Shown: piece by piece, positions 729 through 23,490 of the stretch | Layout: every line of letters starts with the position of its first letter | Position numbering within the stretch: position 1 is the stretch's first letter | NCBI GenBank assembly: GCA_001787005.1 | Contig: MFUV01000009.1 | Coordinates: 1,929-61,772, forward strand | Origin: Candidatus Nomurabacteria bacterium RIFCSPLOWO2_01_FULL_39_18 | Lineage (GTDB): Bacteria > Patescibacteriota > Minisyncoccia > Phycocordibacterales > UBA9973 | Length of the DNA: 59,844 nt | Reading direction: 5' to 3' | The notes under the pieces: model-generated | Told to the model about the DNA's origin: nothing | Databases searched by the model: none | The model's input: only the letters and a program-made list of their open reading frames with translations | Position numbers and translations under genes: made by a program

Positions 729-840
729 GTTCTGGTGCTTTGACGGCGGAGTCACATCTCTTCCCATTCCGAACAGAGCAATTAAGCCCGCTAGTGCCGA
801 TGATAGTCTTCATGGCGAAAGTAGGTAGGCGCCAGAACAA
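729..840 (+). rRNA. rrf: 5S rRNA
   Basis: Helix I is GTTCTGGTGC (730-739) paired with GCGCCAGAAC (830-839). The loop C motif CCCATTCCGAACAGAG and GCCGATGATAG...AAGTAGG are present. It lies directly downstream of the 23S gene. Confidence 0.85.
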
Positions 841-843
841 TGT

Positions 844-883
844 ATTTGAGGAAATAAAAATAGCCTCAAATAAGGTTATTTTT
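844..883 (+). terminator. Terminator-like hairpin after 5S
   Basis: ATTTGAGG (844-851) pairs with CCTCAAAT (864-871), and a T-rich tract follows. The loop is long at 12 nt. Confidence 0.4.
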
Positions 884-1123
884 ACTACCAATATTATATA
901 TTGACTTTATCCACATTTTGATTAGTATGTATTTTAACGAGCGTTTGTTATAATTATCCTAATGGGACGTCATTAATAATTGAGAATTGATTCTTAGTTT
1001 TTTTAGGAATTAGCTCTTATTAATTAATGGTGAAATTATTAAAAGAATAACATAAGAGGTCGGAAAGGTTTTTTCCTTTTGTTTTTTTGAAAATTATTGT
1101 TAGGTAAGTACAGGAAGTAAATG

Positions 1124-1209
1124 TGGGCTTAACGAGATTCGAACTCGTACAACCTAGGCAGGATAGTGGTTTTGGAGACCACCGCGTCTACCAATTCCGC
1201 CATAAGCCC
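1124..1209 (-). tRNA. 86-nt type-II-like tRNA (Leu-like body) with anticodon CCA
   Basis: Reverse complement is GGGCTTA-TG-GCGGAATTGGTAGACGC-G-GTGGT-CTCCAAA-ACCAC-(17-nt variable region)-ACGAG-TTCGAAT-CTCGT-TAAGCCC-A. The D arm GGCGGAATTGGTAGACGCG is the bacterial tRNA-Leu signature. The anticodon loop has U33, then CCA, then A37. The discriminator is A73. Confidence 0.65.
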
Positions 1210-1292
1210 CTACTTTATATTACTTCCTGTGCTCACCCAATAATAAAATATTGAGTGAACAAAGTTTTGCAACAAACTTTAGTTTGAAAAAG

Positions 1293-1321
1293 GCTACGAA
1301 ATTATTTTCGTGGCTTTTTTC
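1293..1321 (+). terminator. Intrinsic terminator
   Basis: GCTACGAAA-TTAT-TTTCGTGGC forms a 9-bp stem followed by TTTTTTCTTT. Confidence 0.6.
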
Positions 1322-1894
1322 TTTCCGCTTCGGTGGTTTGCGGATGATTCTCGGCGTACGACTTTTTCACGTACTTACCAGTAACCGAACTTCTATAGTT
1401 TTTACCCATAGAGTTTAATCGATTTTACATTTCGACAAATGGAGGATACAGGAGCGTGTCCTCACTATATACTATGCGGCCCCCTTTCAGACAGGTAAGG
1501 AAGTGTGCCTAAAAGGAAGTCGAATAATAAACATTTTATTAAATTTTATAGACAAAATAGAACTCGTCCTGAACGGTGGGATGTGGCGAGTAGACATCTC
1601 TTTCGAGACAGCTAACGCCCCATGCGGGACATTAGGTAGAAAATTTACCAAGCATCCCACTGTTCAAGACAGGTTGAACTCTGTCTACTTCTTTTACTTC
1701 GTTTTTCTACGACGAAGGTTAAACGTACTCTACATATAATTATACAGCACAGATAATATTTATAGCAAGTGGAAAACTCTTTTTTTTGTCGCAAGTTGTC
1801 CCGCCTTACAGGCGCAGTACACCTTTTGGACTTTTTCATTCACTTCGTTCTGAAAAATTCTCAAAAGCTCTTGCGCTTGGGTCCCTATCCCAAG

Positions 1895-1990
1895 CTCACC
1901 TCTTCCCATTCCGGACAGAGAAGTTAAGCCTTGTAGAGCTGATGATACTCTTCATGGGGAAAGTAAGCAGTCGCCAACACAAAGTATTTA
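1895..1990 (+). pseudogene. Partial second 5S rRNA copy (loop C to 3' end) with no helix I partner
   Basis: CACCTCTTCCCATTCCGGACAGAGAAGTTAAGCC...GCTGATGATACTCTTCATGGGGAAAGTAAGCAGTCGCCAACACAAAGTATTTA aligns with 5S positions ~753-850. The upstream sequence cannot pair with the 3' end. Confidence 0.6.
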
Positions 1991-2003
1991 ATAAATTAAT
2001 TGA

Positions 2004-2170
2004 GCCGATGATAGGCTGAATGGTGAGAAGCGTAGCTTCGCAAGGCCGGAAGCGCGAAGGCGCTGAGGCGGGGTCGCGAGCAAAGAAAGCTTTCTTTGAC
2101 TGTGACAAAGTAGGCAGCCCGCCTTGGCTCGATGTCAAATCGAGGCAGTCGCCAGCACCGAGTACTTGAT
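2004..2170 (+). repeat. Third 5S 3'-half-like copy carrying two internal insertions
   Basis: GCCGATGATAG...GACAAAGTAGGCAG...CAGTCGCCAGCACCGAGTACTTGATTT parallels GCCGATGATAG...GAAAGTAGGTAGGCGCCAGAACAATGTATTTGA of the intact 5S. Confidence 0.45.
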
Positions 2171-3118
2171 TTAAAATTCAGAGAGAATTTTCTTTAAAAT
2201 TTCTAAGGCTTTTTCCGCGACCTCTTTATGACCTTCCTTTGTTCTGGGAAGTGCTACTGTTGTGGCACGTACAGCCAAATATTTAATAACTATAGGATCA
2301 TCCGCCAGTTTTCCATATCCCTTTTTGAAAAAATCTTTTTCTTTGTTATTTTGATATAGTAGACTTTTTGCAATATCATTCCTAGGATCGCCGGCCTGTA
2401 ACCGTCCCAGGTCGATTATTCCTGTGATTTTGCCGTGATTAATAAAGATATGTTCTTTTTTTAGATCTCTATGCAGAAGGGAAGCTTGCCCGAAATTCAA
2501 AGAATTTATTTCCTTTATAATTCTGTGCAGTTTCTCTGCTTCCTCGGGCGTTATTAAATTATTTTTTACCAAAGTGTTAACTACTTCATTGTAATTATTT
2601 TCTTGTGAGTGACAATATTCTTCATAACTTTTATATTTGCCCCTCAACTTTCCATCAACTACCTCAAGTGTACCAAACCCTTCTAGCTTAATTTCGTTTA
2701 TTCTCCTTAAAATTTCTCCCCAACTTTGATAGATCTTTTCCTTTTCTGTTTCGGATAGGTTTGTTTCTTCGAGGCTTACTCCTTCCGCAGCCTCTATTAT
2801 CATAGTTGGATGCCCAATTGTCGGTGGATTTTCTTGGTATGAAATAACTTGCGGTACGGGTATACTTTCCTCTCTAAGCATTTTATATCCCAAGCTCTCA
2901 ACTTCAAATGCCACCCCTTTTTTATTTATTCTGATGAATACCATTCTTCCTTCAGTAGTTTTTGCTCTGTATACCTCGCTTTGATAACCTTTGGCAGTTT
3001 TTTCTACTGCTGTTAAGACAATTCCAAAATCACTTTTTATAGCTTCTCCCAAACGAACGGGATCCATTTCTATTACCGTCAGTTTTGGAGTTGCTGGTTT
3101 TGGGTCCATATTTTTCAT
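2171..3118 (-). CDS. Phosphotransferase of the APH/choline-kinase (protein-kinase-like) family
   Basis: 315-aa ORF with a Brenner-type catalytic loop LLHRDLKKEHIF and the downstream GIIDLGRLQAGDPRNDI motif. Confidence 0.7.
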   Translation of the reverse strand: MKNMDPKPATPKLTVIEMDPVRLGEAIKSDFGIVLTAVEKTAKGYQSEVYRAKTTEGRMVFIRINKKGVAFEVESLGYKMLREESIPVPQVISYQENPPTIGHPTMIIEAAEGVSLEETNLSETEKEKIYQSWGEILRRINEIKLEGFGTLEVVDGKLRGKYKSYEEYCHSQENNYNEVVNTLVKNNLITPEEAEKLHRIIKEINSLNFGQASLLHRDLKKEHIFINHGKITGIIDLGRLQAGDPRNDIAKSLLYQNNKEKDFFKKGYGKLADDPIVIKYLAVRATTVALPRTKEGHKEVAEKALEILKKILSEF

Positions 3119-3134
3119 TATAACTTATTTTTAA

Positions 3135-3197
3135 CGAAAGTAGGTTATTTCTGAGAGTCTCAGACTCGATGAGCAGTCGCCAGAACAATGTATTTAA
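3135..3197 (+). repeat. Fourth 5S 3'-end fragment
   Basis: CGAAAGTAGGT-(28-nt hairpin insert)-CAGTCGCCAGAACAATGTATTTAAG. The last 24 nt are nearly identical to the trailer of the intact 5S (831-853). Confidence 0.55.
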
Positions 3198-3515
3198 GAA
3201 AACTAACTTTATAAATGAAGTGCTGTCGCCGTCCCGGTGGAACGGCGACGCACTTTTACTGGCATAGTGACGTTCCGTATTTTACGCCGAGGCGGAAGGC
3301 CAAGACGAGAAATATGAGGAAGAACACTATGTAAATCGCGATAAGGATTCTTCGGAGACCCTTACAGGTTTCCGTGATCCGACCGCAAACAGCCTCGATC
3401 TGTGTCACAGGTACCTCCGTGTTTATTGTACTATATATGTTAGAATTTTTTTTGCGTTGCCTGCCCACCCTTGGAGGGCTTGCTTTTGAAATCTGATAGT
3501 GTAGGATTGCTTTAT

Positions 3516-3596
3516 CCAGAGAGGAGGGGTGCATCGTCGGGATCGAAACGTCCCCAAAAGCTGATTTTTAGGCCTAACCAGGCACCCCCCTCTTGG
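3516..3596 (+). ncRNA. Long hairpin A of an ORF-poor structured region
   Basis: CCAGAGAGGAGGGGTGC (3516-3532) pairs with GCACCCCCCTCTTGG (3582-3596), about 15 bp with two bulged A residues. An intrinsic terminator lies 30 nt downstream. Confidence 0.35.
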
Positions 3597-3625
3597 ATAC
3601 CAGATTTGTTCTTAATCGTTTCGTC

Positions 3626-3661
3626 GCCCGAGTTCGTCCATGTGATGAACCGGGCTTTTTT
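3626..3661 (+). terminator. Intrinsic terminator
   Basis: GCCCGAGTTC (3626-3635) pairs with GAACCGGGC (3647-3655), followed by TTTTTT. Confidence 0.6.
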
Positions 3662-3702
3662 CATGCTTGACTTGGGAAATTTAATAACTTACCATTAACT
3701 TG

Positions 3703-3780
3703 CCTGGAGAGGGAGGATGCATGTTGTAGTTGGGAGACGCGCCCCTGACCACAACCGATACCCCGCACCTCCTTCTCTGG
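3703..3780 (+). ncRNA. Long hairpin B, a paralogue of hairpin A
   Basis: CCTGGAGAGGGAGGATGC (3703-3720) pairs with GCACCTCCTTCTCTGG (3765-3780). It has the same purine-arm / pyrimidine-arm design and the same GC-AT apical start as hairpin A. Confidence 0.35.
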
Positions 3781-4046
3781 GTGGGGATGTTCTTTTATAT
3801 ATTTTTTGGTATTCATCGTTTTTTTTGCCCATTTCGTATTTCGCGGAGTGGGTTTTGTGTTTTTATATTGCATGTGGGAAAATGAGTGGGGGTACTCTAA
3901 AATGAGGATCACGTTCTTAACTTCCTGGATAAAGTTGTTCCAGGGATTCATCCGGGTATTGCGCATGTCCGGGTGGTGATATCGCTGGGCCTGTAGTTTG
4001 GTCTTTTCGACGAATTACAGGCGTCCAGCTTTTATTTTTATTTTCA

Positions 4047-4055
4047 TGTTACAAT
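4047..4055 (+). promoter_or_regulatory. Extended -10 promoter (TGtTACAAT), 6 nt before the ATG at 4062
   Basis: The motif and its spacing were read directly. No Shine-Dalgarno sequence lies between them. Confidence 0.5.
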
Positions 4056-4061
4056 GTTTTT

Positions 4062-4844: not shown

Positions 4845-5971
4845 TAGAAAAAATTTCTAACAGGATAGATTGGATGCTGGTCTTTTTCATACTTCCCATA
4901 ATTGCCGCGGGGCTTGTGACAATGAAATCATTTACGGGAGGAGAAAATATTGGCGGATTTTTCGACAAACAGATTATCTGGGTGCTGGTGGGTTTCTCTG
5001 TTTTCTTCATTTTTTCTTTTATTGATTTTCGATTTTTAAAACGTACTTCCGTAATAGTGTTTTTATTTCTTTTGATTTCCTTAATTTTGCTTACACTTTT
5101 TATTTTGGGGCGTGTTTCTCACGGCGCAACGAGTTGGTTTGACTTCGGGTACTTTTCTTTTCAACCGGTTGATATGATGAAGCTGGTGCTGGTGCTCATT
5201 TTAGCAAAGTATTTTTCCCGGCGTCACGTGGAAATCAAGGACATCAAGCACATTTTTATATCATTTTTCTATGCTCTCATTCCTCTCATTTTGGTTTTGC
5301 TTCAGCCGGATTTCGGTTCGACGATGATCATATTTTTTATTTGGCTAGGCATGGTCTTTGTTTCTGGAATTTCCAAAACGCATTTATTTTTGGTTTTTTC
5401 TTCTGGTGTGGCAATCTTCGCCATGATGTGGTTTCTAGTTTTCGCGCCTTATCAAAAAGCCCGTATTTTTAATTTCATAAATCCATTAGCCGATATTCAT
5501 GGAACAGGTTACAATGCTTTCCAGTCAACTATTGCTGTCGGCTCAGGCGAGATTCTAGGCAAGGGTCTAGGCTTCGGTACGCAGTCGAGATTGAAATTTT
5601 TACCAGAGCCCCAGTCTGATTTTATTTTTGCCGCTTTTGCCGAAGAATGGGGCCTAGTCGGTAGTGTTTTGATCCTGTTACTTTATGGTCTTGTTATTTG
5701 GAGGATTCTTTATTTTTCTGCCCTGGGAGCGTCTAATTTCGAGATACTTTTCGGCATGGGCATTGCTATTTTTTTCATGAGTCATATATTCATAAATATT
5801 GGCATGAACCTGGGGCTCTTGCCCGTGACTGGCATTCCGCTTCCTTTTATGAGCTATGGCGGCTCGCATCTTTTGGCTGAGTTTGCCGGCTTGGGTATAT
5901 TAATGAGCATGCGTAGATACGCAAGGCCCGCGCATCGCGACGATATGAAAAATGAATTTCTGGGAGCATGA
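4841..5971 (+). CDS. SEDS-family peptidoglycan polymerase (FtsW/RodA)
   Basis: 376-aa polytopic ORF with SEDS hallmarks: QPDFGS, FAEEWGLVG, GLLPVTGIPLPFMSYGGS. Confidence 0.85.
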   Translation: MIEKISNRIDWMLVFFILPIIAAGLVTMKSFTGGENIGGFFDKQIIWVLVGFSVFFIFSFIDFRFLKRTSVIVFLFLLISLILLTLFILGRVSHGATSWFDFGYFSFQPVDMMKLVLVLILAKYFSRRHVEIKDIKHIFISFFYALIPLILVLLQPDFGSTMIIFFIWLGMVFVSGISKTHLFLVFSSGVAIFAMMWFLVFAPYQKARIFNFINPLADIHGTGYNAFQSTIAVGSGEILGKGLGFGTQSRLKFLPEPQSDFIFAAFAEEWGLVGSVLILLLYGLVIWRILYFSALGASNFEILFGMGIAIFFMSHIFINIGMNLGLLPVTGIPLPFMSYGGSHLLAEFAGLGILMSMRRYARPAHRDDMKNEFLGA

Positions 5972-6919: not shown

Positions 6920-7384
6920 ATGACAACTGACGAACTAAAAAAGCTAGTACAAGAAATTGTTGCTGAATCATATCGTTTAAATTTAGCTCATACTTCTGAG
7001 AGAAATGCACCAGTTAATTATGCATGTGTATTCACACATAGTTCAGATAAATATGAGGAAATTATTAATGTAGCTCAACAACTTGGACCAGTAGTGCAAG
7101 ACACTACAATGGGTTTAGTATTTCATATTTCTGCACTCCCAACTGTTGCTGGAATTCTTAACCTATTAAAAATACGTCGTTCTGATACAAAACGGACGGA
7201 ACGTGGAGATGCAGATTTTACTATCACTGACTATGAAAATTTCAAGAGGACATATCTTGGAAAATCTGGTTTTAGTATAATTAAACGACCCGAGATTGAA
7301 ATGATTGAGCTTTTAGACCCATCCTTCAATGTAATTGCTTATTATTCCAATCCTCCGCTCGCTACTGTATTAAAAATCAAATAA
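6920..7384 (+). CDS. Hypothetical protein
   Basis: 154-aa ORF with no motif I recognise. It lies between palindrome copies C and D. Confidence 0.5.
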   Translation: MTTDELKKLVQEIVAESYRLNLAHTSERNAPVNYACVFTHSSDKYEEIINVAQQLGPVVQDTTMGLVFHISALPTVAGILNLLKIRRSDTKRTERGDADFTITDYENFKRTYLGKSGFSIIKRPEIEMIELLDPSFNVIAYYSNPPLATVLKIK

Positions 7385-7396
7385 TATTATATAGTT

Positions 7397-7783
7397 ATGA
7401 CTTTATTAAAAAACAAATCCAAATTATTACCGAGACGGAGAGAATTAAGGAAAAATCAAACCAAGCACGAGGAAATTTTATGGGAGCATATAAGAAATCG
7501 AAAACTTGGATTTAAGTTTAAAAGGCAGTACAGTATAGGTGGTTATGTTTTAGATTTTTATTGTCCAAAAATCAAATTAGCCATCGAGTTAGACGGGAAC
7601 CAGCATTTAGAAAAAGAAAATTTTTTATACGATGAAGACAGAACTAATTTTTTAAAAGTTTTGGATTGTAAAGTTTTAAGGATTAGAAATTTAGAATTGG
7701 AAACAAATTTAAAAGAAGTTTTATTAAAAATTAAGCATTTTTCCCCTCTACTTGATAAGGAGAGGGGTTTAGGGGTGAGGTGA
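7397..7783 (+). CDS. DUF559 (Vsr-like / restriction-endonuclease-fold) domain protein
   Basis: ELRKNQTKHEEILWEHIRNRKLGFKFKRQYSIGGYVLDFYCPKIKLAIELDGNQH...DRTNFL...VLRIRN fits the DUF559 pattern. The C-terminus PLLDKERGLGVR is encoded by repeat copy D. Confidence 0.8.
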   Translation: MTLLKNKSKLLPRRRELRKNQTKHEEILWEHIRNRKLGFKFKRQYSIGGYVLDFYCPKIKLAIELDGNQHLEKENFLYDEDRTNFLKVLDCKVLRIRNLELETNLKEVLLKIKHFSPLLDKERGLGVR

Positions 7784-16725: not shown

Positions 16726-17042
16726 TTGCGGGAGGCCGAATCGAACGGCCGTCTCAAGGTTATGCTTTACCACCATAGTTTTCACTACCCTTCAAATACT
16801 TTTAGGTTTGTGGTCTGGACTATACCATCTCCTTTTTTGAAAAACCAAAATTAAGGAGCTCATCGTCTAGTCTCTACACTTTTATTTCTGAAAAAATTCA
16901 GAAAATTTAGCTCGGAATTGTCTTTCTGTTTTCTCACAGAGAGGATTTCTCCGAATTTGATGAGTTCATACCTCAAAGTTTCCCAAGAGGGGGCCCATAG
17001 AATAACGCTGAGCCTTGCGAGATGCCTCTTCTCTATCCCGCT
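16726..17042 (-). tRNA. tRNA-Met(CAU), initiator-like, split by a 246-nt group I intron in the anticodon loop
   Basis: Exon 1 is AGCGGGA-TA-GAGA-AGAGGCA-TCTC-G-CAAGG-CT. Exon 2 is CATAA-CCTTG-AGAC-GGCCG-TTCGATT-CGGCC-TCCCGCA-A. The acceptor resembles E. coli tRNA-fMet (CGCGGGG/CCCCGCAA), with an unpaired 1:72 position and A73. Confidence 0.7.
16765..17010 (-). ncRNA. Group I intron (ORF-less) in the tRNA-Met anticodon loop, between U33 and C34
   Basis: The 5' exon ends in U and the intron ends in G. Exon GGCU can pair with intron GGCC (P1, with a U.G pair). GTAGAGACTAGAC and GGTATAGTCCAGAC match the R and S (P7) consensus elements. Confidence 0.7.
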
Positions 17043-22508: not shown

Positions 22509-22565
22509 ATGAATATAGGATTTACAAAAATGCATGGTTTGGGAAATGACAAAAATTATGCCTGA
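22509..22565 (+). pseudogene. 18-codon relic of the diaminopimelate epimerase (DapF) N-terminus
   Basis: Encodes MNIGFTKMHGLGNDKNYA*. FxKMHGLGNDF is the conserved DapF N-terminus. The relic overlaps the prfB start out of frame. Confidence 0.45.
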
Positions 22566-23490
22566 TGATACACACGATATAGATGAACAAATTAGGAAAC
22601 TAGAGGAAGGTATGGCACTTCCGGATTTTTGGAATGATAAGGTTAAGGCGCGGGCGGTACTCCGAGAACTGGCGGAGCTGAAGAATAAAAAGGAAGGCTT
22701 AGGAAAATATGATAAAGGCAATGCCATACTTACAATAATTTCTGGCGCGGGCGGAGACGATGCCGAAGATTTCTCCGCTATGCTTTTGTCGATGTATCTG
22801 AAATATGCTGACAGAAAAGGATGGGGCATTTCTTTTATTCATGAACACAAGAATGATCACGGGGGTTATAGGAATACCACAATAGAAATTTCTGACCCCA
22901 CCCTTCGCCCTCCCCTTGCCAAGGGGAGGGTTGGGGAGAGGTCGGGTCCCTACGGGACCTTGAAAAACGAATCCGGCGTGCACCGCCTGGTGCGCATTTC
23001 TCCCTTTAATGCCAAGAAGCTACGCCACACGTCCTTTTCTCTAGTTGAAGTTTTGCCGAAATTTTCAAAATTAGAAGAACGCGATGTGGCTATACCTGAA
23101 GCGGATTTAAAAATAGAATTTGCTCGCTCGTCAGGCCCGGGAGGTCAAAATGTGAATAAAAGAGAAACAGCTGTCAGGATTGTGCACGTGCCGACCGGCA
23201 TTTCTGCGCAAGCTTCCGGCGAACGCTCCCAAGAACAGAATCGTGAGTCTGCTCTGTCCATCTTGCGGGCGAAGATCTTCAAAAAAGCGCAGGATGAGAA
23301 AAAGAGCATTGAGGAAAGCTTGAAAATAAATAAAGGCACAGAAATAGAATGGGGGAGTCAGATACGTTCATACGTACTTCATCCTTATAAAATGGTCAAA
23401 GATCATAGAACTGGAGCGGAGACTTCGAACATTGATGCGGTTTTGGATGGTGATATAGACTTATTTGTGGATGCAGAAAAAGACTTGTAA
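22534..23490 (+). CDS. prfB: Peptide chain release factor 2 (short form, no recognisable +1 frameshift site)
   Basis: Has SPF (HRLVRISPFN), GGQ (SSGPGGQNVNK) and WGSQIRSYVLHPY. At 318 aa it has a much reduced domain 1. Alternative starts are at 22546 and 22558. Confidence 0.85.
   Translation: MVWEMTKIMPDDTHDIDEQIRKLEEGMALPDFWNDKVKARAVLRELAELKNKKEGLGKYDKGNAILTIISGAGGDDAEDFSAMLLSMYLKYADRKGWGISFIHEHKNDHGGYRNTTIEISDPTLRPPLAKGRVGERSGPYGTLKNESGVHRLVRISPFNAKKLRHTSFSLVEVLPKFSKLEERDVAIPEADLKIEFARSSGPGGQNVNKRETAVRIVHVPTGISAQASGERSQEQNRESALSILRAKIFKKAQDEKKSIEESLKINKGTEIEWGSQIRSYVLHPYKMVKDHRTGAETSNIDAVLDGDIDLFVDAEKDL
22894..22944. repeat. Family-1 palindrome, copy E, a 51-nt in-frame insertion in prfB
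   Basis: GACCCCACCC-TTCG-CCCTCCCC-TTGCCAA-GGGGAGGG-TT-GGGGAGAGGTCG encodes DPTLRPPLAKGRVGERS, between TIEIS and GPYGTLKNESGVHRLV. Confidence 0.85.

Follow-up and report, generated by a model that had tools for sequence, protein, structure and literature searches.

The window analysed here, that is, the whole stretch of 59,844 nucleotides (nt) from contig MFUV01000009.1, carries on its minus strand a transfer RNA (tRNA) gene in which a leucine-type class II body is joined to an unambiguous CCA anticodon, the anticodon of tRNA-Trp. This observation, made in an earlier note on the same DNA, is confirmed. It is tentatively proposed, with a confidence somewhat short of even, that the gene represents an intact, expressed and selected accessory tRNA, descended from the UUR-reading tRNA-Leu(CAA) by the replacement of A35 with C35, which would be charged with leucine and would insert some leucine at UGG codons. 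The gene and its anticodon are located as follows.

1124-1209, minus strand: class II tRNA of 86 nt with a Leu(CAA)-type body, as defined by ARAGORN, Rfam, manual parsing and alignment with Escherichia coli leuX and metagenomic tRNA-Leu.
1173-1175, minus strand: anticodon CCA (C34 = 1175, C35 = 1174, A36 = 1173); the 7-nt loop is CUCCAAA and its stem GTGGT/ACCAC.

The gene was recognized both by ARAGORN, whose call on the minus strand is 'Trp' (cca) at 1123-1209, and by the Rfam tRNA model RF00005, which scored 59.5 bits over 1124-1209 (gathering score 29). Parsed manually, it reads GGGCTTA TG GCG GAATTGGTAGA CGC G GTGGT CTCCAAA ACCAC in its 5' part, followed by the variable region TATCCTGCCTAGGTTGT, ACGAG TTCGAAT CTCGT, TAAGCCC and A73; the acceptor stem is formed by GGGCTTA and TAAGCCC, U8 precedes a D-stem of 3 base pairs (bp) that encloses the first of these two loop sequences, and the T-arm is ACGAG-TTCGAAT-CTCGT. 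The variable region of 17 nt includes a 3-bp stem and makes the tRNA class II, the discriminator A73 (position 1124) directly follows the acceptor strand TAAGCCC with no 3' CCA end encoded, and the anticodon is flanked by U33 and A37. A cloverleaf scoring above the threshold, with the conserved U8, A14, G18G19, U33 and a GTTCRANNC T-loop, was found. The 86-nt minus-strand body of leucine type, the 17-nt variable region with A73 and the CT-CCA-AA loop closed by GTGGT/ACCAC had all been described in the earlier note and were recovered here, the anticodon lying at 1175-1173; the ARAGORN run that it had proposed returned a tRNA with the anticodon cca and the label 'Trp'. An RNA-family search matched no described family beyond tRNA. 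The tRNA with CCA recurs in independent ENA assemblies 99.9% (L001) and 99.99% (L031) identical to the window, and words sampled from positions 900-1500 were 90-100% present in eight public groundwater or soil runs, being all present in six of the eight; an assembly artefact is rejected because of this recurrence in independent assemblies and sequencing runs. All strains of the window organism that were found are at least 99.9% identical.

The D-arm bears out the tRNA-Leu signature previously ascribed to it. A metagenome scan with the module of D-arm and anticodon stem, the anticodon being masked, retrieved nine tRNAs, all with leucine anticodons (CAA five times and UAA four times), and the D-arm of the window tRNA is identical or nearly identical to those of these nine metagenomic tRNA-Leu and differs from that of E. 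coli leuX at two positions. It has the 3-bp stem and the GAAUUGGUAGA loop that place A14, A15 and G18G19 in the manner of a tRNA-Leu, and U48 is present in addition. Compared with leuX and metagenomic tRNA-Leu(CAA), the set of class II tRNA(CCA) genes collected in this work exhibits only one systematic difference, A to C at position 35, the D-arm, U33, A37, A38 and A73 being common to both; A37 and A38 accord with an origin from a UUR-reading isoacceptor. Among annotated phage genes, the best matches are all tRNA-Leu, and phage and plasmid records match generic tRNA-Leu segments only. Judged as a bacterial tRNA-Leu, the gene possesses the class II arm, A73 and the D-arm and lacks a leucine anticodon (NAG or YAA), since CCA stands in its place; judged as a bacterial tRNA-Trp, it possesses the CCA anticodon and lacks the class I variable region of 4-5 nt as well as G73 and the Trp-type acceptor pairs, its acceptor end being A73 and G1-C72. 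It is thus of hybrid identity, with leucine identity elements in the body and the anticodon of tryptophan. The tRNA-Trp of L041 is organelle-like and was left out as a comparator.

Leucine is most likely the amino acid carried by this tRNA, because it presents A73, a Leu-type D-arm (A14, A15, G18G19) and U48 and shows neither G73 nor a class I shape. The bacterial tryptophanyl-tRNA synthetase (TrpRS) needs G73, which is an antideterminant for leucyl-tRNA synthetase (LeuRS), and the anticodon arm is dispensable for leucylation, the anticodon being ignored by LeuRS (PMC9976931). The combination of A73 with a class II shape would presumably disfavour bacterial TrpRS. Of the two alternatives in the earlier note, leucine at UGG or an evolved tRNA-Trp of unusual architecture, the former is thus favoured by the identity rules. 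No gene for an aminoacyl-tRNA synthetase (aaRS) was seen in the window or among the neighbours of the other tRNA(CCA) copies, and a dedicated synthetase or other common protein partner is rejected since none is shared by all copies.

Relatives of the gene were sought in ~185,000 species genomes with a pattern composed of the Leu-type D-loop, the CUCCAA loop, class II spacing and the T-loop; the pattern demanded the CCA anticodon, and cassettes with other anticodons were outside its reach. There were 25 matches, all in metagenome-assembled genomes (MAGs), and 18 of these are class II tRNAs with CCA and A73, about 8 of the 18 belonging to Patescibacteria. A73 is present in 18 of 18, and Trp-specific acceptor features are present in none. 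About half of the class II tRNA(CCA) genes are single ones scattered among unrelated phyla, with ordinary flanks and an encoded CCA end. The window unit, meaning the tRNA with its flanks, falls into Group A, together with units from the two Paceibacteria L007 (Nomurabacteria) and L011 (Taylorbacteria) and from L009 (a MAG labelled Draconibacterium). In all four, the tRNA is enclosed by a 25-27-bp stem that contains the common core GAGCA(C/G)(A/G)GGAAG(T/C)AA paired to its complement. The other three tRNAs are 64-73% identical to that of the window and all carry CCA. In the alignment of these four units, 20 of 20 tRNA stem pairs are kept, 11 of them with changes on both sides, and the 27-bp flank stem is 89% paired with both sides changed in seven pairs, the pairing falling to about 43% in a register-shift control on the same alignment. 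Between the window and L007, the arm core is conserved at 16 of 17 positions and the tRNA body at 64%. A covariance model of the unit gave 165-179 bits for Group A and 78-94 bits for L012, L004, L013, L019, L005 and L027; it matches the flanks in Patescibacteria-type copies only, genuine tRNA-Leu and the tRNA(CCA) genes of other phyla being matched over the tRNA body only.

Contigs related to the window unit were also found in freshwater, sediment and wastewater runs and keep CCA, with no anticodon difference in runs X9, X10 and X16, and the anticodon positions are likewise unchanged in L011-type units of 94-97% identity from soil and lake runs. Such close relatives were retrieved without a requirement for CCA and keep it, though they have diverged by only 3-10%. 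A run search seeded with the L007 unit matched no runs. As far as these alignments can show it, the tRNA is conserved as one kept under selection and is not decaying, and on the same comparisons the gene is a member of a small Patescibacteria family and not a one-off.

Several members outside Group A have a setting of their own. In L012 (766-2322) and L005 (4070-5530), the class II tRNA(CCA) is situated within 1-2 kilobases (kb) of the gene for the CCA-adding enzyme and of a cluster of tRNA-Arg(UCG), tRNA-Gly(GCC) and tRNA-Pro(CGG), and L012 and L013 have XerC/D-like recombinases (64% identical) upstream of the tRNA. Unlike Group A, these copies may have been passed on vertically at a tRNA locus that is conserved. 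A Burkholderiaceae MAG (L014, 2038-2125) contains a Leu-type class II tRNA to which ARAGORN gives the four-base anticodon ccaa, and the Taylorbacteria MAG L011 contains at 4894-5011, about 1 kb from its tRNA(CCA) cassette, a LOOT RNA motif (Rfam RF03000, 78.5 bits).

The flanks of the window tRNA form the following elements, which were defined on the minus strand.

1220-1246, minus strand: leader (5') arm of the 27-bp bracketing stem, ending 10 nt before tRNA position 1, with the conserved core GAGCACAGGAAGTAA at 1220-1234.
1094-1120, minus strand: trailer (3') arm of the bracketing stem, beginning 3 nt past A73, its inner 13 nt being 1108-1120.
1249-1260, minus strand: 5' strand of the upstream hairpin H0, which pairs with 1231-1242 in the outer leader arm in the minimum free energy fold.

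The 13-nt inverted repeat that had been noted around the tRNA (1108-1120 and 1220-1232) is present and pairs at 12 of 13 positions, but it is not the full extent of the pairing, being the inner part of a stem that extends to 27 nt (1094-1120 with 1220-1246, 85% complementary). The leader-trailer duplex was calculated at -31 kcal/mol (z = -7.7), a value reached by 0 of 300 shuffles. No comparable flank stem was seen on the other tRNA units of the window or on its two 5S genes. The other tRNAs do not get beyond z values of about -2, and leader-trailer stems are therefore rejected as a trait common to the tRNAs of this genome. Some flank pairing is present at the tRNA-Arg of L012 and the tRNA-Glu of L027. 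Hairpin H0 was assessed sequence by sequence, MAFFT having given no common register for it; in each member of Group A it is significant (0 of 300 shuffles in every case), and between members its sequence covaries. The outer part of the leader arm is also the 3' strand of H0, so that the hairpin and the outer half of the stem are alternatives to each other, and because of this borrowing the precursor is predicted to have two competing folds, either H0 with an inner stem of 11-13 bp (essentially the 13-nt repeat) or the full long stem. The role of a processing stem, suggested for the repeat beforehand, is consistent with such a conserved and covarying structure.

The genome of the window is compact and bacterial, with about 40% G+C, and the window encodes RodA/FtsW, FolD, SecDF, GatCA, CTP synthase, class I ribonucleotide reductase (RNR) and RNase J. 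The RodA homologues that are 80-94% identical carry the names Candidatus Nomurabacteria or Paceibacterota, and the organism, which comes from groundwater, is therefore placed in the Parcubacteria group of Patescibacteria (candidate phyla radiation, CPR). An organellar origin, which the rRNA introns could suggest, is rejected in view of the bacterial gene content and of these RodA names. The surroundings of the tRNA comprise two 5S genes, a variable island and a small open reading frame (ORF).

731-837, plus strand: 5S rRNA gene a (Rfam 58.2 bits), at the end of the rRNA operon, 286 nt from the tRNA.
1875-1979, plus strand: 5S rRNA gene b (Rfam 45.4 bits), 72% identical to gene a, in the lineage-specific interval.
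838-4061, no strand: variable island from the rRNA operon to the conserved block of RodA and an ORF of 260 amino acids (aa), delimited by synteny with L044, L045 and L046.
1286-1409, minus strand: highly basic 35-aa ORF (1302-1409, MGKNYRSSVTGKYVKKSYAENHPQTTEAERKKPRK) with a 16-bp hairpin (1286-1321) after it, immediately 5' of the tRNA cassette.

Besides the tRNA cassette and 5S gene b, the island contains an APH-family kinase gene (2171-3118, minus strand; Pfam APH). In L044 and L045 (RodA 84% identical) and in L046 (RodA 82%, on an 813-kb contig), the order 23S-5S-small ORFs-260-aa ORF-RodA-FolD is kept, and the syntenic rRNA-RodA site of these relatives has a single 5S and no tRNA; the tRNA, the second 5S and the APH gene therefore lie in a lineage-specific island. 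The gene is thus accessory and cassette-like, in agreement with the earlier note, which had spoken of a cassette-like interval adjoining the 5S gene: it is part of a lineage-specific insert and lies 286 nt from the 5S at 731-837. Synteny of the window locus with other tRNA(CCA) loci was not found in any case, and orthology of the locus is rejected on this ground and because close relatives are without a tRNA at the site. A promoter-like site at 1768-1739 (minus strand) has the same orientation as the small ORF and the tRNA and could drive both of them, and a weaker candidate immediately 5' of the leader arm, TTGCAA-N16-TATTTT, was read by eye and is below the threshold of the promoter scan. 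As regards the 5S genes, the single 5S of the relatives scores about 71 bits, and the 5S of L046 is 84% identical to gene b and 81% identical to gene a; one of the two copies may thus have arrived by horizontal transfer, along with the tRNA island.

UGG accounts for 1.12% of the 16,016 codons, and genes terminate with TAA, TGA and TAG alike. In the alignment of the RNR beta subunit with Chlamydia R2, four of six UGG positions correspond to tryptophan and two to phenylalanine or tyrosine, and in the alpha subunit eight of 12 correspond to tryptophan and two to phenylalanine; over both subunits, tryptophan is found at 12 of 18 UGG positions, phenylalanine or tyrosine at four and leucine at none. 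Nine syntenic orthologues compared with two relatives have 21 columns with tryptophan in all three organisms, with tryptophan counts of 28 in the window versus 24 and 24 in the relatives. Judged from these alignments, UGG still means tryptophan, with neither reassignment nor avoidance of the codon, and an alternative code is rejected since UGG aligns with conserved tryptophan and all three stop codons are used.

One further tRNA gene of the window was overlooked by ARAGORN on the raw DNA. At 16726-17042 (minus strand), a group I intron (about 17010-16765) separates U33 from C34 of a tRNA(CAU), and splicing in silico yields a 72-nt, initiator-like tRNA-Met with an A1.A72 mismatch; the intron is kept at the same place in the relative L044 (19731-19951). 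What could have been taken for an orphan group I intron (16791-17020) hiding a tRNA-Trp or a tRNA-Leu was rejected as such because it splits this initiator-like tRNA-Met(CAU). Since the gene was missed, claims of missing tRNAs in this lineage need an intron-aware search.

The proposed course from gene to codon is the following. Leader and trailer of the precursor would pair into the ~25-27-bp stem with its conserved core or, in the alternative fold, into the upstream hairpin and the 11-13-bp inner stem. The stem may be a signal, built into the transcript, for processing or stability, for instance one recognized by a nuclease specific for double strands, and would free the tRNA gene from dependence on the context of its insertion. 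RNase P cleavage, 3' trimming and CCA addition would follow, and the mature tRNA would be charged with leucine by LeuRS via A73 and the D-arm/tertiary core, after which UGG would be read as leucine to a low or moderate extent, a canonical tRNA-Trp encoded elsewhere competing for the codon. A bolder version, which is considered unlikely, sees in the unit a horizontally mobile and self-processing Patescibacteria cassette selected to read UGG with leucine, or else a structurally disguised UGG decoder, in short a conserved and transferable bacterial device for deliberate ambiguity of a sense codon; if this were true, the benefits could be movement of ribosomes under a shortage of Trp-tRNA in these episymbionts, which are auxotrophic for amino acids, or survival of nucleases that destroy the normal tRNA-Trp.

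Several points weigh against leucine insertion by a selected tRNA. The charging rules are those of E. coli, B. subtilis and Aquifex, and would hold for Patescibacteria by analogy with these bacteria. CCA is the strongest determinant for TrpRS, so that partial or even dominant charging with tryptophan is possible. A proteome-wide source of Trp-to-Leu errors that is under selection needs a benefit, and any benefit is a guess; it is speculative that stalled ribosomes would be relieved in an auxotrophic episymbiont short of Trp-tRNA. Distant members of the family came from a pattern that required CCA, and conservation of the anticodon across the family is to that extent not independent of the retrieval. 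As to expression, a related unit is represented with its flanks by a single contig of 226 nt in one wastewater metatranscriptome, where carry-over of DNA is possible. Finally, a canonical tRNA-Trp, for which the earlier note had advised an inventory of the genome, was not seen in about 70 kb of it, a span that is too small to be informative.

The strongest rival builds on charging with tryptophan via the anticodon. It holds, although this appears unlikely, that the gene is a true, oddly shaped tRNA-Trp, that TrpRS of this lineage possibly accepts A73 and G1-C72 as the archaeal and eukaryal enzymes do, and that the tRNA would be an extra or replacement tryptophan decoder, for example one resisting a nuclease aimed at the normal tRNA-Trp. 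In every domain of life, C34, C35 and A36 count among the main determinants for TrpRS, and A73, C34/C35 and G1-C72, which are used by the archaeal TrpRS, are all present here (PMC9976931). The strict conservation of UGG as tryptophan with no avoidance of the residue, the conservation of the family and the lack of a canonical tRNA-Trp in the roughly 70 kb just mentioned would also suit this explanation. However, A73, G1-C72 and the whole D-arm are plain tRNA-Leu features, no member has acquired the Trp-specific acceptor features, and bacterial TrpRS requires G73 (PMC9976931). Moreover, close relatives are without the unit at the syntenic site and other units occupy other sites, which points to an accessory gene rather than the sole essential tRNA-Trp, and about eight Patescibacteria matches only were obtained among the ~185,000 species genomes.

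The mobility of the unit has to be considered separately. It is a short unit of ~155-170 bp with inverted repeats of ~27 bp (25-27 nt in the window, L007, L009 and L011) and occurs in differing genomic contexts. The L007 unit is located within a non-coding insertion of ~900 nt between nrdA and nrdB, genes that are 6 bp apart in the window, and in the L011-type units from soil and lake, the similarity reaches as far as the outer end of the leader arm and, in X21/X22, to ~9 nt past the trailer arm, the contigs continuing into dissimilar sequence beyond the arms. Such a discrete unit, whose homology stops at the arm ends or close to them and whose arm core is more conserved than the tRNA body (16/17 versus 64% between the window and L007), could also belong, as a module in the shape of a tRNA, to a small selfish or mobile element with a mainly non-translational function, the arms serving as ends for recombination, transposition or RNA processing and the tRNA part as a promoter or processing scaffold, a decoy or an integration target. 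The neighbours of tRNA(CCA) genes outside Group A are in line with this explanation, as they include tyrosine recombinases (L012, L013, L019), an IS1595 transposase (L004), an excisionase-like helix-turn-helix gene (L024) and a type I restriction-modification methylase (L021). It is nevertheless regarded as quite unlikely, for the tRNA helices and the nucleotides of the tertiary interactions are kept by compensatory change, which argues for a working L-shaped tRNA, and the covariation of the arms indicates base pairing and not two independent protein-binding ends. Furthermore, the arm motif is not dispersed, being found in one copy only, at the unit, in the 59.8-kb window and an extension of about 10 kb; no clear target-site duplication was seen at the arm ends, no recombinase is near any Group A copy, and viral contigs gave 0 matches for the tRNA pattern and 0 for the unit pattern. 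Carriage by a phage is rejected in view of these viral-contig results and of the window neighbours of the tRNA, which are housekeeping genes.

Where tRNA-Leu(UAA) is able to read UUG, a redundant tRNA-Leu(CAA) gene may give rise to anticodon mutants. That the window gene is such a neutral or mildly harmful, transient anticodon mutant with no function of its own is very unlikely, for although a single A35C step from CAA suffices, the same mutation segregates at low frequency in humans (PMC11028032), about half of the class II tRNA(CCA) genes lie scattered in unrelated phyla with ordinary flanks and an encoded CCA end, and the strains found, at least 99.9% identical, are too close to one another to speak for persistence within the species, the bracketing stem and its core are common to three units 64-73% identical, all with CCA and with every helix compensated, related units at 90-97% identity elsewhere keep CCA, and the site, where relatives have no tRNA, is not an ancestral tRNA-Leu locus. 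An origin of this kind probably explains the scattered tRNA(CCA) copies in other phyla.

Other features of the window concern different genes. The 3' end of the 23S gene carries a group I intron, the sites lying at 143-354, about 426 and 670-709, and the 23S insertions vary by strain in genomes otherwise at least 99.9% identical, with a 777-bp insert containing a LAGLIDADG ORF in L031 (57-833) and an insert of ~350 bp in L001 (3049-3401). Between FolD and PAP2 are situated a 154-aa ORF (6920-7384, plus strand) and a DUF559/Vsr-like endonuclease ORF (7397-7783, plus strand); FolD and PAP2 are adjacent in L043, L044 and L046, which indicates another small lineage-specific insertion in the window. 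A release-factor ORF with PCRF and RF-1 domains (22534-23490, plus strand; 318 aa) seems short at its N-terminus and may represent a programmed +1 frameshift of the prfB type.

Tryptophan has one codon and one tRNA. A second decoder of UGG would alter the meaning of the codon directly, because the amino acid has this single codon. Leu-body tRNAs with CCA have so far been rare human alleles and engineered yeast constructs, with leucine placed at Trp codons there, and a bacterial version would provide a natural system for studying tolerated or regulated mistranslation, the movement of tRNA genes, and a precursor structure that frees a gene from its landing site. Annotation based on the anticodon will name the gene tRNA-Trp, and the lack of a genuine tRNA-Trp could then go unnoticed, as could the presence of a mistranslating tRNA. 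The significance would be greater if leucine charging and selection on CCA hold true.

Hybrid-identity tRNAs are already known in the form of nev-tRNAs, tRNA-ProX, allo-tRNAs and human anticodon variants; in the literature, neither a bacterial Leu-type tRNA with a CCA anticodon nor the bracketed cassette was found described. As an ordinary bacterial tRNA-Leu(CAA), E. coli leuX shares with the window tRNA the D-arm TGGCGrAATyGGTAGACGC, U33, A37, A38, the long variable arm, the T-arm and A73, but it has A35 where the window tRNA has C35, an encoded CCA end and no long leader-trailer stem. The canonical bacterial tRNA-Trp shares the CCA anticodon and the CUCCAAA loop, whereas its class I shape with a variable region of 4-5 nt, its G73 and its Trp acceptor pairs are all absent from the window tRNA (PMC9976931). 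Miniature inverted-repeat transposable element (MITE)-like units and tRNA-adjacent integrative elements resemble the cassette as short units with terminal inverted repeats in differing contexts; unlike MITE-like units, the cassette is present in a single copy per region and has no clear target-site duplication, its arms covary as a stem and its interior is a functional-looking tRNA.

The nev-tRNAs of nematodes are reportedly leucylated in vitro. Like the window gene, they combine a class II Leu-type body with an anticodon for neither leucine nor serine, and they are conserved within a clade (PMC3333845). They are eukaryotic nuclear genes with anticodons for glycine or isoleucine (CCC, UAU) and are not known to have a flanking hairpin, and their role in translation in vivo is debated. 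Natural and conserved mismatches between body and anticodon, predicted or shown to mistranslate, are also represented in bacteria by tRNA-ProX with ProRSx, allo-tRNAs and tRNA-Sec(GCA), but these are class I or Sec-like rather than Leu-type, and none is described with a CCA anticodon (PMC11415595). In addition, tRNA-ProX has a dedicated synthetase paralogue, whereas the tRNA(CCA) units are accompanied by no aaRS gene. The identical change is known from the human A35C variant and the yeast tRNA-Leu anticodon library, in which a CAA-type Leu body with C35 is charged with leucine since LeuRS ignores the anticodon (PMC11028032). The human tRNA-Leu-CAA-3-1 with A35C, that is, tRNA-Leu(CCA), was found by tandem mass spectrometry to place leucine at Trp codons with little toxicity (PMC11028032), a direct precedent for the decoding proposed here. 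That variant is a rare eukaryotic allele (about 0.03%) with neither bracketing stem nor cassette, whereas the gene of the window is bacterial, has conserved flanks and resides in a variable island.

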